Origin: an uncultured delta proteobacterium
Lineage (GTDB): Bacteria > Desulfobacterota > Binatia > UBA9968
Length of the DNA stretch: 64,000 nucleotides
NCBI GenBank assembly: GCA_963803415.1
Contig: CAWDMI010000002.1
Coordinates: 2,723,512 to 2,787,511, forward strand
Reading direction: 5' to 3'
Part shown: positions 363 through 5,373 of the stretch, one piece after another
Position numbering within the stretch: the stretch's first letter is position 1
Layout: the number at the start of each line of letters is the position of its first letter
Position numbers and translations under genes: made by a program
The notes under the pieces: generated by a model
Told to the model about the DNA's origin: nothing
Seen by the model: only the letters and a program-made list of their open reading frames with translations
Database searches by the model: none

Positions 363-397
363 CCCTCGCCCGCGAGCGGGAGAGGGAAGGGTGAGGG
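363..397. repeat. Palindromic dispersed repeat, copy A (ccctcgccc-gcgagc-gggagaggg-aa-gggtgaggg). It sits between convergent genes and is probably a bidirectional terminator hairpin.
   Basis: Read directly. It has the same architecture as copies at 2410, 2802 and 2933. Confidence 0.6.
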
Positions 398-434
398 TAA
401 GACTTTTTGGCTCCATGATTTAGTCCAGCCTTGT

Positions 435-1784
435 CTAAATGCGTAGCGCCTTCAGAAGCCTCAGTAGATACTTTTCGTGTAAGCCCAAGGCCCTCGCGGC
501 GGCGGCGCGGTTTCCCCGGGCGCTAGCGAGCGCCGCGAGGATCAGGTTTTTTCTATGCGATTCAATGCTTTCACGATAGGACAGAGCTTGAGTCCGGGAA
601 CCGGCCGGCGGCGCGACGATTCGAGGCGGGAGGTCCGACACCGCGAGTTCTGGCCCGTTGCCGAGGACCACGCCCCGTTCTATTACGTTGGCCAACTCGC
701 GGACGTTACCGGACCACTCATAAGCACAAAGTCTTTCCAAAGCCTCTTGCGTGATCGCACGAAAATTCTTCTTTGTTTCTTGCGCCGAGCGGTGGAGGAA
801 ATATTGCGCCAGCGCCGGGATGTCTTCTTTTCTTTCCCTCAATGGCGGCAAAATAATCGGAACCACATTTAGACGGTGATAGAGATCCTCGCGGAAGCGA
901 CCCTCTTTGACCGCAGCCTCTAAATCACGGTTCGTAGCGGCCACGATGCGCACTTCCACGCGAATCTGTTTCGTTCCTCCCACTCTGTCGAATTCGCGTT
1001 CTTGGAGAAATCTAAGTAGCTTTGTCTGAAGCTCGGGCGAAATATCGCCGACTTCGTCGAGAAAGACGCTCCCGCCATTGGCCAGCTCCATTTTGCCTTT
1101 TTTGAGCTGATCCGCGCCCGTGAAGGCTCCCTTTTCATGTCCAAAAAGCTCACTTTCCAACAGTTCCTTGGACAGTCCCACGCAGTTAATGGCAACGAAG
1201 GGCTGATCCTTCCTTTCACTCCAATTGTGAATAGCTCGGGCGAAAATTTCTTTTCCGGTGCCGCTTTCGCCGAGAAGCAAGACAGTGGCTTTGCTGGCTG
1301 CCGCTTTTTTTGCGGTCTCAATCGCCTCTCTCATTTTTTCGCTTTTCCCGACCACTAAGCGGTAGCGCTTGTCCGCTTCTTCGGAAAATAGCTCCAGTTC
1401 TCTTTTCAGTTCTTCCCGTTCCAGCGCCTTGCGCACCACGATCTCGAGGTGCTGGGGATCGAAAGGTTTGGGAATAAAATCGTAGGCTCCCTCATTCATC
1501 GCTTCGACTGCAGCTTCGATAGAGCCGTGCGCGGTAATTACAATGACAGGGATATCGACCTCTTCTTGCTTCAGCTTTCGCAGAAGGTCCATTCCACCCA
1601 TGCGTGGCATGTGGAGATCTAAGAGGACCAGAGCGGGCGTCTGCTGTTTAATTGCGGCCATGGCCTCATGCCCGTCGGCAGCCATCGTTACCTGGCACTC
1701 CAGGGCGCGGAGGCGCACGTCTAGAAGGCGCCGTGATGCGGCGTCATCATCAACTACTAATATTCTCGCTCCGCTTGTTTCCAT
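435..1784 (-). CDS. Sigma-54-dependent NtrC-family response regulator with REC, AAA+ and Fis-type HTH domains
   Basis: REC motif (ILVVDDD...LLDLHMP), Walker A GESGTGKE, GAFTGA motif, ESELFGHEKGAFTGA, C-terminal HTH. Confidence 0.9.
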   Translation of the reverse strand: METSGARILVVDDDAASRRLLDVRLRALECQVTMAADGHEAMAAIKQQTPALVLLDLHMPRMGGMDLLRKLKQEEVDIPVIVITAHGSIEAAVEAMNEGAYDFIPKPFDPQHLEIVVRKALEREELKRELELFSEEADKRYRLVVGKSEKMREAIETAKKAAASKATVLLLGESGTGKEIFARAIHNWSERKDQPFVAINCVGLSKELLESELFGHEKGAFTGADQLKKGKMELANGGSVFLDEVGDISPELQTKLLRFLQEREFDRVGGTKQIRVEVRIVAATNRDLEAAVKEGRFREDLYHRLNVVPIILPPLRERKEDIPALAQYFLHRSAQETKKNFRAITQEALERLCAYEWSGNVRELANVIERGVVLGNGPELAVSDLPPRIVAPPAGSRTQALSYRESIESHRKNLILAALASARGNRAAAARALGLHEKYLLRLLKALRI

Positions 1785-1850
1785 TTTTAATCTTCAGTCA
1801 TTATTTTAGGTGTACAATCTTTTCTATACGAGCACGAGCAACGAGCACGA

Positions 1851-2234
1851 TCACGAAATTTCCTCCCTGGCAACGCGCAAGGCGACCTCTTGGATGAACG
1901 TGTCCTTGTCAATGGGCTTTGTGATATAGCCAGCACAGCCAGCAGCCAAGGCTTTCTCCCGATCCCCCTTCATCGCGTATGAGGTTACGGCTACAACCGG
2001 GATGTTGGCCGTCGCCGGCTGCGCTTTGATTTTCTTGACCGCCTCAAGTCCATCCATTCCGGGGAGCTGGATGTCCATCACGATCAGATCGGGCCGCTCT
2101 GTCTTCAGGACGTCAAAGGCCTCTTGCGCCGTAGTGGCCTCGCGAACCTCGTAACCCTGCGAGCGGAGCAGGAACAGCGCCAGACGCCGATTCACCGGAT
2201 TATCCTCAACCAGCAGTATCTTCTTTCCGTTCAT
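1851..2234 (-). CDS. Single-domain CheY-like response regulator (REC)
   Basis: KILLVEDNPVNRRL...DLIVMDIQLPGMDG...KPI motifs. Confidence 0.85.
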   Translation of the reverse strand: MNGKKILLVEDNPVNRRLALFLLRSQGYEVREATTAQEAFDVLKTERPDLIVMDIQLPGMDGLEAVKKIKAQPATANIPVVAVTSYAMKGDREKALAAGCAGYITKPIDKDTFIQEVALRVAREEIS

Positions 2235-2403
2235 ACAATTTTGAATTTTAGATTGGACGCAAAACCCAACAGTATCTTCACCTGGGGGTTCCTATGGTGC
2301 CACTTATTGCGCCAATCTCTTGGTTTCCTTGTAGCAAAATCGATCACTCCCCCATTCGATTTGAGCTATGTGCGCTCGATCATTCTCGCCTTTCCCTAGC
2401 TTC

Positions 2404-2808: not shown

Positions 2809-2834
2809 CCTGACCCTCTCCCAGAGGGAGAGGG
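2802..2834. repeat. Palindromic dispersed repeat, copy C, in inverted orientation (ccctcaccc-tga-ccctctccc-agag-ggagaggg)
   Basis: Read directly. It sits at the 5' end of DUF559 and is inverted relative to copy B. Confidence 0.6.
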
Positions 2835-2878
2835 AATACGGTTAATGAACAAAAAATACCTAATCCAAAAAAGTTCCG

Positions 2879-2912
2879 TCTCTCTCTCTCTCTCTCTCTC
2901 TCTCTCTCTCTC
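2879..2912. repeat. (TC)17 dinucleotide microsatellite followed by a T4C7 tract
   Basis: Uninterrupted tc repeats are visible at 2879-2912. Confidence 0.9.
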
Positions 2913-2928
2913 TTTTCCCCCCCTGTCT

Positions 2929-5373
2929 CTAACCCTCTCCCTGAGAGCGAGGGAAAGGGTGAGGTTCTACCGGTAATGTGAAGAAGAATCGGCTTCCCTT
3001 GCCGAGTTCGCTTTCAACCCAAATCTTACCGCCATGCATCTCGACAAATTTTCTCGCTAGAGCAAGTCCCAGCCCGGTGCCTTCAGGGTTTCCAGATCCG
3101 CTACTGGCCTGCTGGAATTCGAGGAATATTCGCTCATGGTCTTCTGCGGCGATACCTGGGCCGGTATCGCCTACCTCGACGCAGACAAACACGTCATCGC
3201 GGAATGTTCTTAGCCAGATTTGTCCCTCCCGTGAGGTGAATTTCACCGCGTTGCCCATCAGGTTGAGAAGCACTTGTTTCACACGCGCGGTATCTAGGCG
3301 GAGTGCAATGTTGCTGCTGTCTTCCACGTCAAGGGCAATACCCTTCGCCGCCGCGAGAGGCCGGATTGTAGCACAAGCTGCATCGAGAATGCCTTGCAGG
3401 GATGTCAGTTCTGTTTGCAGTTCCATCCTGCCGGCTTCGATTTTGGATAAGTCGAGGGCCTCGTTGATGAGGTTGAGCAGATGTTTCCCCTGTTAAAGAT
3501 GTCCGTAAGGAATTGCACCTGTTCATCGTCACTGACCTGCATTGCGGGGTCGAGCAGGACCTGCGAAAAGCCGATGATTGCGTTGAGCGGCGTGCGAAGC
3601 TCGTGGGACATGTTGGCGAGAAACGCGGACTTATGACGGTTGGCAGTCTCAAGCTGTTGGCTTTTGGCCTCAATCTCACGGAAGAGCCTTGCGTTCTGCA
3701 TCGCCAAGACAGACTGTGTCGCGAAGGTCTGGAGCAAATTCACGACTTCGGTGGGAAAGCCGCCCAGTTCCCGCCGCCAAACGACCAAACCTCCTACAAT
3801 CTGGTCTTCGAACAGGGGGGAGCGCTAGGACAGATCTATAGCCAGAGCGGGCCAGGATGGGACGCACTCGAGCAAGGACGACTGCCTGCTCATTTAGAAT
3901 ATCGGGCACTTGTACCGGCACGCGCGCGAGCGCGGCTTGCCCCAAAGCTCCCTCACCCAGATGAATCGGCACTCCCTGAAGCGCGTCACTCAACTCAACT
4001 TCCATTCCATGCGTGGCCCTGAGATGAAACTCCTCGGCTAGGTTGTCGTATTCATAGACCACTCCGCCGCTAGTTCGAGAAAGCTGAACCGCTCGCGTTA
4101 CAATGGTTGTGAGCACTGTCTCCAGATCGAGCGTGGAGCTTACCGCTTGTCCTATTTCACCCAGTGCCGTCAGTTGCTCCACGGAGCGCGACAGTTCTTG
4201 GGTGCGGGCCTGCAGCTCTTGGAAGAGACGAACATTCTCAATCGCGATCACCGCTTGATCGGCGAATGTGGTCACAAGCTCGATCTGTTTATTGGAGAAC
4301 GGCCTGGCTTCTTCAGTTCTGCGAATCAGGATGACTCCCACGAGGGCACCCTCCCTGAGCATGGGGACTCCCAGGGTCGTGCGGCCCCTCCCCATGCTCA
4401 CCGCCTCAGGAAATTCGTATTCCGGGTCAGCCATGATGTCCGGGATGTGAACCACCTGGCGCTCAACGGCCACTCGTCCTACCGTGGTCCCTCGCCCCGG
4501 CCGAATTGGGTTTCGCTCAAGAAAATCCCTGAATTTCTGTGGCACATTGTAGGCGACCGCCGGCCGCAGCAGCTCGCCGTCTGTCCTGAAGATAAATCCC
4601 GAATTCGCGCCGCACAGTCTCGTCGCGTTTTCAATCAGTGTTTCCAAAACCGGCTGGAGATCGAACGTCGAGCGGCTGATGACTTTCAATACCTCGCTGG
4701 TTGCAGTTTGCTGCTCCAAGGCTTCAGTGAGGTCCTGATTTCTGGCTTGCAGTTCCCGAAACAGGCGCACGTTCTCGATGGCGATGACGGCCTGATCGGC
4801 GAAAGTCTTAAGAAGCACGATCTGTTTTTCCGAGAATGGACGAACCTCTGTGCGGCGGATCAAAATGGCTCCGACGGGGACACCCTCGCGCAGCAATGGG
4901 GTAGCAAGGGTGGTCCGATCGCCCATTTGCCTGTGATAGGCCTTGCTCAGCGGGAACTCCTCTTCCGACTCGACAGCCAGGTCAGGAATGTGAATCGTCC
5001 GCCGCTCAATTACGGCCCGGCCGCTTGTAGAGCCACGAGTGATAGGATTCGGTACTGCCGGGACAGGCCCATATATCGCCACTGGCTGAAGAATGTCACC
5101 ATCAATACGAAAAACTACCGCGTCGCGTGCATCGCATAGGCGTGCGGCATTCTCGGCAACCACGTCAAGAACGGGCTGAATGTTTGTCGGAAAACTGGCA
5201 ATCGCCCGCAGAATCTCGCTGGTCGCCGTCTGCTGTTCCAGGACTTGAGCGAGCTCCCGCTCAGTGGATTTGAGCTGCTCGGAGACGCGTTTAAGGTCTT
5301 TCTTAAGTTGACGCAGCTCGGTAAGGCCGGGAGTGTTCGTCTTCGGGTCTTTTTTTATTCTAGGCCTCCCCAT
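2929..5373 (-). pseudogene. Cytoplasmic multi-GAF sensor histidine kinase (coiled-coil, at least 3 GAF domains, HisKA, HATPase_c). It is split into three ORFs by two 1-bp frameshifts in G/C homopolymers, near 3487-3490 and 3820-3825.
   Basis: The ORFs 3676..5373, 3405..3788 and 2929..3426 join into one kinase once the frame is corrected. Repeated GAF linkers ([10 protein letters not shown]) are present, the H-box is SHELRTPLN, and N/G boxes occur in the C-terminal ORF. Corrected reads are [22 protein letters not shown] and [27 protein letters not shown]. Confidence 0.6.
2933..2964. repeat. Palindromic dispersed repeat, copy D (ccctctccc-tgagagc-gagggaaa-gggtgagg)
   Basis: Read directly. It overlaps the 3' end of the histidine-kinase gene. 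Confidence 0.6.

Follow-up and report, generated by a model that had tools for sequence, protein, structure and literature searches.

A DUF559 nuclease gene bounded by inverted PIT/TMECO-like repeats in a two-component operon of an uncultured Binatia bacterium

Results

The DNA analysed was a stretch of 64,000 nt (the window) from an uncultured delta proteobacterium (GTDB lineage Desulfobacterota, Binatia, UBA9968), corresponding to positions 2,723,512 to 2,787,511 of contig CAWDMI010000002.1 (assembly GCA_963803415.1). Near its start lies a gene for a DUF559 nuclease (2404-2793, minus strand; 129 aa from the ATG at 2793, with the stop codon at 2404-2406; Pfam PF04480), which forms a cassette of ~430 bp with the inverted copies of a ~35-bp repeat element found at each of its ends. 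The element consists of a 9-nt C-rich arm, a loop of 3-6 nt, a complementary G-rich arm (G-arm), a spacer of 2-3 nt and a second G-rich box (G-box) that is a near-repeat of the G-arm, and in the cassette both G-boxes face the gene. A total of four copies (A to D) were found within 2.6 kb, in the places given by an earlier annotation made from the letters of the DNA (the sequence-only reading). Those bracketing the gene are copy B (2410-2442, plus strand; CCCTCTCCC-tac-GGGAGAGGG-aac-GGGTGAGGG) and copy C (2802-2834, minus strand; CCCTCTCCC-tct-GGGAGAGGG-tca-GGGTGAGGG), which had already been described as lying in opposite orientation and which a repeat finder returned as inverted repeats of 33 nt, 85% complementary and with 359 nt between them. 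Copy C is the 5′ terminal repeat, reading hairpin-tca-G-box (GGGTGAGGG) on the gene strand, and it stops 8 nt ahead of the ATG, with the box occupying the position expected for a Shine-Dalgarno sequence. Copy B is the 3′ terminal repeat and is located within the 3′ end of the open reading frame (ORF), where it reads box′ (CCCTCACCC)-gtt-hairpin on the gene strand and codes for PSPVPSPVGRG, the last 11 residues of a 13-residue C-terminal tail (KPSPVPSPVGRGS).

The placements previously proposed for the two other copies also stood. Copy A (363-397, plus strand; CCCTCGCCC-gcgagc-GGGAGAGGG-aa-GGGTGAGGG) is a solo element formed by a hairpin and a G-box, of the CCCTCGCCC variant and with a 2-nt spacer, and it separates the convergent genes for an aldo/keto reductase (58-321, plus strand) and an NtrC-like protein (435-1784, minus strand). 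Copy D (2933-2965, plus strand) is degenerate: its single hairpin lies between a box′ and a decayed box (2921-2965) and can also be read on the minus strand (2921-2959). It overlaps the stop codon of a histidine kinase gene, whose native end ‘...TLPIN*’ has been exchanged for a 16-residue extension, according to the kinase 3′ ends of related loci (L082 and L084-L093). Regarding their significance, the 21-nt G-rich half of the element, allowing up to three mismatches, had four matches in 64 kb compared to 0.05 expected from shuffled sequences. Furthermore, the whole window was scanned, with filters off, using a covariance model (R1) built only from copies in other genomes, resulting in scores of 30.6 bits for copy A (E=1.2e−5), 42.1 for copy B, 47.6 for copy C and 19.6 for copy D on the plus strand (19.2 for its minus-strand reading). 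Beyond these copies, nothing in the 64-kb window scored under E=0.1. Degenerate partial copies had also been suggested at 9505-9525 and 11121-11155; the former was rejected, as only 9507-9518 was matched with 8 bits (E=2.5), and so was the latter, which went undetected at E≤10, both stretches being purine-rich and lacking a C-rich arm. Among known RNA families, Rfam RF01762 (whalefall-1) matched copy C at 21.1 bits, below its gathering threshold of 37, and had no match in seven related loci whose arm and box are separated by an extra hairpin, so it was discarded.

The DUF559 ORF matched PF04480 with E=2.6e−43 and 146.8 bits (cut-off 20.6) over profile positions 5-108 of 109, and DUF559 and MTES_1575 were the only Pfam domains in it, with no transposase domain among them and no match to the Vsr family (PF03852) at E≤0.001. 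A profile of the family's homologues matched PDB entry 3HRL, an uncharacterised ‘endonuclease-like protein’ of Neisseria, with E=1e−34, and 3R3P, the catalytic domain of the Vsr-like homing endonuclease I-Bth0305I, with E=1.3e−5. Moreover, a weak PADLOC match to ‘HEase’ was obtained. The residues D52, E63, D65 and H69 were invariant across 19 DUF559 homologues and putatively correspond to the catalytic residues of Vsr. No C5-cytosine methyltransferase gene adjoins the DUF559 gene, its neighbours being the kinase and receiver genes (only the adjacent genes were considered, the rest of the window being unscreened). When the cassette was folded as RNA, its two ends were joined, with a dG of −185.8 kcal/mol and z = −4.15.

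The 35-bp element of the window is identified by its pattern as the PIT/TMECO intrastrand-triplex motif, rather than a private repetitive extragenic palindromic (REP) sequence. The published TMECO pattern is CCCTCNCCC-N3-6-GGGNGAGGG-N3-GGGNGAGGG, equivalent to the ‘PIT’ element of Hoyne et al. 2000 (Holder et al. 2015, PMC4666352). Allowing one mismatched triplet, copies B and C fitted it exactly, copy A fitted it apart from its 2-nt second loop (the CCCTCGCCC variant being of the ‘mm’ type), and copy D had two substitutions; the E. coli copies given in that study are near-identical to B and C. The window thus holds the motif in several copies, with an inverted pair (B and C) and an intergenic copy (A), while B and D overlap the 3′ ends of ORFs, unlike the ‘always intergenic’ copies of E. 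coli. Previous work counted 23 copies in E. coli K-12, some of them arranged as five inverted doublets, and a total of 3,610 in 262 proteobacterial genomes, with a patchy distribution (30 in E. coli W, 1 in UTI89 and none in Salmonella); the motif formed a triplex in vitro and was tied to local genome variability and instability, and its authors stated that no transposase, integrase or other mobility function had ever been seen nearby (PMC4666352). An earlier study, according to the discussion of the same paper, found neither promoter nor terminator activity for the motif in E. coli (PMC4666352). The same motif has been described as HPG1/HPG2, a ‘G-quadruplex-hairpin-duplex switch’, in a work where endonucleases and transposases are unmentioned (bioRxiv 10.1101/032615). 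By analogy, the window copies may be capable of forming a triplex or a G-quadruplex.

A total of 80 homologous DUF559 loci (48-69% identity) were taken from GTDB species genomes of more than 10 phyla, including Rokubacteria, Nitrospira, Chloroflexota, Elusimicrobiota, Binatia, Planctomycetota, Rickettsiales and Bdellovibrionota-like genomes, as well as Alpha-, Beta- and Gammaproteobacteria (Xanthomonas, Rhodanobacter, Luteimonas, Methylococcus and Gallionella among them). A first clue had come from the closest homologues, which belong to metagenome-assembled genomes with the labels Methylomirabilales, Binatia, Rokubacteria and Deltaproteobacteria: PSPxPSPxGRG or PHPxPLPxRER is the C-terminus of nearly all of them, and these two tails correspond to one DNA sequence, CCCTCACCC-nn-CCCTCTCCC-loop-GGGAGAGGG, translated in two frames. 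Since the 3′ repeat within the ORF tail is read in different frames, selection acts on the nucleic acid and not on the peptide. When the flanks were printed, the package hairpin-box-start codon...ORF...box′-hairpin appeared nearly everywhere in the 80 loci. The flanking inverted repeats exceeded the 99th percentile of shuffled sequences in 68 of the 78 testable loci, and the median inverted-repeat score was 46 within loci versus 25 across loci, therefore both ends of each cassette co-vary.

The arrangement a-loop-a′-spacer-a′′ was also searched for in a sequence-agnostic way in 81 loci (the previous 80 and the window), and the element was found in the stereotyped orientation upstream of the gene in 54 of them, downstream in 61 and on both sides in 49. 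Its density reached 2.19 per kb at up to 300 nt from the gene and 0.077 per kb farther out in the same loci, compared to 0.0068 per kb in control metagenome loci that lack DUF559 (438 kb), which represents an enrichment of ~300-fold beside the gene and 11-fold away from it. The distance from box to box′ with the gene inside was 315-394 nt in most loci, the box ended at a median of 11.5 nt ahead of the start codon, and 35 out of 40 ORFs extended through the whole 3′ element. Moreover, hairpins of at least 8 bp were present in 103 of 136 arms, compared to 1.7% of shuffled arms, and comprised 51 distinct stems; as the arms were chosen solely by inverted repeat, this count is less biased than the model-based alignment, which leans towards structure and in which 98% of the cells were paired and four out of nine pairs showed compensatory changes. 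The latter alignment was used because a plain MAFFT alignment mis-registers the C-rich arms, given their differing loop lengths.

Regarding the diversity of the repeats, variants of the same design were found in different lineages (CCCCTCCCC/GGGGAGGGG, CCTTCCCCC/GGGGGAAGG and CTCCCCC/GGGGGAG), and one Dehalococcoidia genome had a wholly different palindrome at the cassette ends. Some genomes harboured two cassettes whose ends differed from each other and were matched internally, as in loci L011 and L056, with second copies also in L028 and L035. Furthermore, at least 11 loci of several phyla had inverted doublets without a gene, with spacers of 23-86 nt and resembling the doublets of E. coli. 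The main difference between box and G-arm concerns a single central position (T versus A, in 107 of 157 copies), and the CCCTCGCCC variant, present in 24 of these 157 copies, would give a G:T pair with the box. Such a G:T mismatch between arm and box is of the type read by a Vsr-type enzyme and may be regarded as a lead, not as evidence.

The position of the cassettes was also compared. A protein cluster named P0079, found in 15 contigs, had the same downstream genes in all eight places displayed, together with one variant with an IS110 upstream, and recent mobility of the cassette was therefore left unsupported. In two Gallionella loci (L027, 9900-10450, and L067, 1090-1640), ~50-60 nt of the 5′ end of a downstream FtsX-like permease gene (MNLLRLSLNLLRRDWR...) were duplicated, in diverged form, upstream of the cassette, while a Ferrigenium locus (L016) had the cassette at the same site with the duplication absent. 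Considering replicons other than chromosomes, the DUF559 family appeared in 32 of 72,556 plasmid records, mostly megaplasmids, and in 14 viral-contig loci; on these numbers, a phage or plasmid element was rejected. A published screen for programmed inversions found ‘DUF559 domain-containing protein’ and ‘endonuclease domain-containing protein’ enriched among its targets, with odds ratios of 14.3 and 9.6, respectively (PMC9881135), an enrichment that is very likely due to the inverted repeats at the cassette ends.

In the window, the cassette is recognisable by sequence comparison as an insertion into a sigma-54 two-component operon, where it occupies the short spacer that separates kinase and receiver. 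The upstream gene encodes a GAF-GAF-GAF-HisKA-HATPase histidine kinase (2929-5373, minus strand; Pfam domains), which spans three frames in the window. Directly downstream of the cassette there is a single-domain response regulator (1851-2234, minus strand; PF00072, E=2.4e−31), followed by the last gene of the operon, an NtrC-type sigma-54 activator with receiver, AAA+ and HTH_8 domains (435-1784, minus strand; PF00158 with E=5.5e−73, PF00072 and PF02954), found in the same order in orthologous loci. The receiver protein was used as query to obtain 80 metagenome loci, on each of which the operon genes were mapped. This is the comparison with relatives that the sequence-only reading had proposed, and it bore out the view that the DUF559 gene splits the operon: orthologous kinase-receiver-NtrC operons, with receivers 73-80% identical, were found without DUF559, the cassette being absent from L084-L098 and the kinase and receiver genes of L090, L095 and L096 being separated by only ~20-45 nt. 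Relatives with empty sites exist, and the repeat occurs beyond this locus. In L085, a solo repeat (box′-hairpin-box) covers the kinase 3′ end without any gene. The native kinase C-terminus is ‘...FFFTLPIN*’, and in the window and L082 the last codons are displaced by the repeat and the protein is lengthened. The DUF559 protein of L082 is 85% identical to that of the window and its cassette occupies the identical site, so the insertion is not very recent.

In L082, the closest relative, the region upstream of the DUF559 gene (2996-3497) contains a remnant of an IS481-like transposase gene (~430 nt), on each side of which the 5′ repeat and a 35-nt segment occur in direct orientation, indicating recombination or insertion at the repeat. 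The same kinase-receiver spacer holds, in L087 and L092, a four-helix-bundle ORF of ~400 nt with its own inverted (ATTTTGG)n ends; located at 1125-1680 and 100-645, respectively, and resembling the proteins of 23S rRNA intervening sequences, it represents a second kind of small cassette with inverted ends. In addition, every orthologous operon has AAAATC[CGT] octamers in runs ahead of its receiver gene (in the window at ~2240-2262, minus strand).

Between the cassette and the kinase gene there is a variable spacer (2835-2932), which is lineage-specific and outside the conserved architecture. It contains a perfect (TC)17.5 tract at 2879-2913 (100% matches in Tandem Repeats Finder) followed by T4C7 at 2914-2924, in agreement with the perfect (TC)17 and T4C7 noted previously between copies C and D. 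The further proposal that the (TC)n tract is a slipped-strand phase-variation switch was rejected: no pair of sigma-70-like promoter hexamers was found on either side of the spacer tract, the tract is outside any ORF, L082 has ‘agaaagagga’ in its place, and it was unseen at other cassettes. Moreover, compared to the intact kinase orthologue of L082, the frame in the window changes from −1 to −2 and back to −1, near 3808-3815 and 3483-3489, through two compensating 1-nt indels at the homopolymers G6 (3815-3820) and C4 (3487-3490). Considering also that the identical protein (102 aa) is on record on a contig of 3.57 Mb, these changes are probably a long-read sequencing error rather than the sign of a pseudogene, and therefore the exact lengths of (TC)n and T4C7 are uncertain. 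An independent short-read assembly of the same strain (L083, whose position 1 corresponds to ~2826 of the window) breaks off within the copy C hairpin; contigs thus break at repeats of this kind, and many cassettes may be hidden in metagenome assemblies as a result.

In E. coli K-12 (L081; NC_000913, 1349500-1352500), the DUF559 gene is ycjD. Downstream of it (locus positions 1700-1930), a duplicate of ~40 nt of its own 3′ end is followed by TMECO copy no. 9. Of 5,426 complete E. coli genomes, 3,378 had the ycjD region, which O157:H7 and ST131 lack. For the repeat counts given below, strains were assigned to their established phylogroups. The gene occurs in phylogroups A, B1 and C, at a site held elsewhere by the eef operon (PMC12817139). 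In the published counts, the strains of A, B1 and C, with ycjD present, had 13-30 repeats (18-30 in all but one strain), compared to 1-2 in B2, 10-11 in O157/O55 and 6-15 in D/F, where ycjD is lacking (PMC4666352, supplementary table). These higher counts in ycjD-carrying strains are suggestive and fit a connection between nuclease and repeat.

Finally, other repeats were observed in the window. A second dispersed intergenic repeat consists of partly palindromic arrays of the hexamers ACGAGC, ACGAAC and CACGAA (1828-1856, 14339-14393, 37010-37049 and 45560-45607), the first of them between the receiver and NtrC genes; this hexamer repeat is unrelated in sequence to the triplex motif. Diverged direct repeats (70-78%) were also found (5611-5908 vs. 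8116-8410; 6089-6125, 8582-8618 and 9365-9401; 10373-10464 vs. 10514-10605), representing two or three paralogous small genes with common start regions and a 141-nt tandem duplication within a coding region; neither has any relation to the cassette.

Discussion

On balance, the locus is probably best explained by a compact cassette with a REP/RAYT-like organisation (RAYT, REP-associated tyrosine transposase) and a PD-(D/E)xK nuclease, inserted in this operon. The comparison of loci shows the repeats as the termini of the cassette itself, given that the same package surrounds homologous genes in many phyla, and shows that the repeat sequence varies by lineage yet remains matched between the two ends of each cassette. 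Furthermore, inverted doublets without the gene and dispersed solo copies occur in the same genomes, and the repeats are enriched in the genomes carrying the gene. The terminal-repeat architecture is thus the rule for a large DUF559 subfamily and not peculiar to this genome. The sequence-only reading had seen here a REP/MITE-like mobile unit (MITE, miniature inverted-repeat transposable element) carrying a Vsr-fold endonuclease; of this, the repeats as inverted termini of a gene unit were retained, while the element turned out to be the published PIT/TMECO and no target-site duplication could be demonstrated. The repeat and the protein family were each known, and their consistent pairing in a cassette appears to be new within the literature that could be searched: no paper linking DUF559 to PIT/TMECO was found in a full-text search, outside which most subscription journals lie, so that a prior description is possible.

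Regarding the mechanism, it is quite possible, if somewhat short of probable, that the nuclease recognises structured repeat DNA and nicks or cuts it, with the repair of the breaks spreading the repeats. The DUF559 enzyme would recognise the repeat as a hairpin, cruciform or triplex before nicking or cutting it, and repair or recombination at these breaks would multiply and preserve repeats and doublets, and at times the cassette as a whole. In a read-through transcript, or in single-stranded DNA, the ends could pair as a panhandle of ~30 bp around the ORF, which would bury the G-box at the ribosome-binding position, and a potentially genotoxic nuclease would then be poorly expressed. This damping would be analogous to the fold-back inhibition of insertion sequences.

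Several observations weigh against the cassette and the activity proposed for its enzyme. The connection between DUF559 and the repeat is purely one of association. In the 64-kb window no repeat lies beyond the first 3 kb, so dispersal in the source genome is unproven, and a comparison of the window and L082 with the empty sites of L084-L096 gave no convincing target-site duplication or exact excision scar. Approximately 10-30% of the homologous loci have one side without a recognisable element. Moreover, cassettes are stable at fixed sites in Rhodanobacter/Dyella, in Gallionellaceae and in the P0079 cluster, no near-identical cassettes at differing sites were found among the loci compared, and carriage outside chromosomes is rare, as the plasmid and viral counts above indicate. 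In E. coli, the ycjD gene itself has a decayed 3′ hairpin and lacks the 5′ repeat, and the contrast in repeat counts rests on essentially one clade (A/B1/C).

The only sequence relative that has been characterised, I-Bth0305I (3R3P, E=1.3e−5), is a homing endonuclease, and, together with the weak PADLOC ‘HEase’ match, it favours a free-standing homing endonuclease that cuts an intact repeat doublet in gene-less genomes and whose gene is copied into the middle by double-strand-break repair. The repeats would then be a split target site and the doublets empty targets, not deletion derivatives. The presence/absence polymorphism at one site of the orthologous operons agrees with this, the gene-less doublets have exactly the orientation of an uninterrupted target, and the partial duplications of adjoining gene ends (L027, L067 and E. 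coli ycjD) resemble co-conversion tracts. However, doublets are missing from the empty sites of L090, L095 and L096, L085 shows one hairpin element only, phages and plasmids very seldom carry the family, and the solo copies A and D at the ends of other genes are left unexplained. In addition, lineage-specific ends that co-vary with the gene are unexpected for a conserved host target and natural for the termini of an element, so homing is judged distinctly unlikely.

An ordinary host repair nuclease, of the solitary very-short-patch type, is also unlikely. In such a case, the repeats would be expression signals of the mRNA (a 5′ hairpin with a G-rich ribosome-binding site and a 3′ stabiliser or terminator) or the arms of an invertible switch, and the other genomic copies would be an unrelated family sharing the motif. 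The median of 11.5 nt between G-box and start codon, the strong panhandle fold and the synteny of cassettes over genus-level distances in some clades are in line with it, as is VsrA of Caulobacter, a DUF559 protein reported as a Vsr-like nuclease that is induced by DNA damage and functionally connected with a cytosine methyltransferase (PMC12907096), and the odds ratio of 14.3 for DUF559 among predicted programmed-inversion targets would suit a switch (PMC9881135). Nevertheless, the gene of the window is found within an unrelated signalling operon and is absent from the orthologous operons, the adjoining genes being those for the kinase and receiver, with no methyltransferase adjacent. Identical elements also cap the kinase gene (copy D) and separate two other genes (copy A), a private signal would lead one to expect neither gene-less doublets nor repeats in 11-fold excess over control loci at a distance from the gene, and the motif had no promoter or terminator activity in E. 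coli, in an earlier study cited in PMC4666352. Alternatively, repeats could pile up in permissive intergenic hot spots where DUF559 happened to land, with a phase-variable (TC)17 as the relevant feature. The kinase-receiver spacer does behave as a hot spot, with other fillers in orthologues such as the four-helix-bundle ORF with its own inverted repeats, and the motif has been linked to local instability (PMC4666352). But the stereotyped orientation and spacing in 49-68 of ~80 independent loci from many phyla and the ~300-fold enrichment over controls argue strongly against a chance association; the 3′ element lies within the ORF, and the closest relative lacks the (TC)n tract, which is outside ORFs and predicted promoters and unseen at other cassettes, all of which makes coincidence very improbable.

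Returning to the repeat-bounded cassette, it is tentatively suggested that DUF559 nucleases are the cognate enzymes of PIT/TMECO, constituting a second partnership between repeat and enzyme, independent of RAYT, in more than 10 phyla. If true, small elements that move or propagate themselves by means of a Vsr-fold PD-(D/E)xK nuclease would effectively constitute a new class, this enzyme type would join the short list of partners of REP-like repeats, and the proposal would account for the abundance of the repeats in some genomes, their near absence from close relatives and their occurrence at unstable loci. PIT/TMECO have been catalogued since 2000 with their origin, spread and patchy distribution still unexplained, and DUF559 is one of the larger nuclease families of ‘unknown function’; the physical link gives a testable function to both, predicting the structured repeat as the substrate of DUF559, and offers a mechanism for the instability of repeat loci. 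Regarding annotation, the Pro/Ser/Gly/Arg-rich tails (PSPxPSPxGRG and PHPxPLPxRER) of thousands of predicted proteins are explained as read-through of the repeat, and the repeats also account for assembly breaks at these sites.

Comparison with known systems

The window copies share with PIT/TMECO the sequence pattern, the solo and inverted-doublet arrangements, the location at gene ends and the local variability. In contrast, PIT/TMECO was published as an orphan structural repeat of Proteobacteria, while here a soil lineage outside the Proteobacteria has it at both ends of a cassette with a nuclease gene, and the association with DUF559 spans many phyla.

The Vsr protein and the DUF559 protein VsrA of Caulobacter belong to the same fold and superfamily as the nuclease of the window. 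VsrA, the sole DUF559 protein for which in vivo data were found, caused DNA damage in vivo and an SOS response upon deletion of the cytosine methyltransferase (PMC12907096). Unlike Vsr, the nuclease of the window has no match to PF03852 and no adjacent methyltransferase gene, and neither a repeat-flanked cassette nor a position in an unrelated operon is a feature of Vsr genes. With I-Bth0305I and other Vsr-like (EDxHD) homing endonucleases, it has in common the similarity of the nuclease core (3R3P, E=1.3e−5) and a small gene of selfish appearance that is either present or absent at a fixed site. However, no intron, intein or phage genome is involved here, the gene being found in a chromosomal operon spacer with its own inverted repeats, and the DUF559 family is far nearer to 3HRL (E=1e−34) than to I-Bth0305I.

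Terminal inverted repeats and short gene-less derivatives are also known from MITEs, insertion sequences and Rickettsia palindromic elements, and the lengthening of a host ORF in frame by an insertion, seen here at the kinase C-terminus, is shared with this group as well. As in IS10 and IS50, a panhandle in the read-through transcript could mask the ribosome-binding site (fold-back inhibition). As differences from the group, the cassette has no DDE, serine or tyrosine transposase, no target-site duplication was detected, and multiple identical copies are absent from the window.

The organisation of REP/REPIN-RAYT systems is similar in that one small enzyme gene is flanked by inverted short palindromic repeats, which are also dispersed as singlets and inverted doublets; dispersed copies and doublets of the present element were found in related genomes and in E. 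coli. In both systems the gene is mostly single-copy and often syntenic, and the type of repeat matches the resident gene. The enzymes differ, as RAYT is an HUH/Y1 transposase (IS200/IS605-like), while the one described here is a predicted Vsr-like PD-(D/E)xK nuclease. Moreover, the element described here has an extra G-box, giving it polarity and a potential for triplex or G-quadruplex formation, and its 3′ copy is located inside the ORF.

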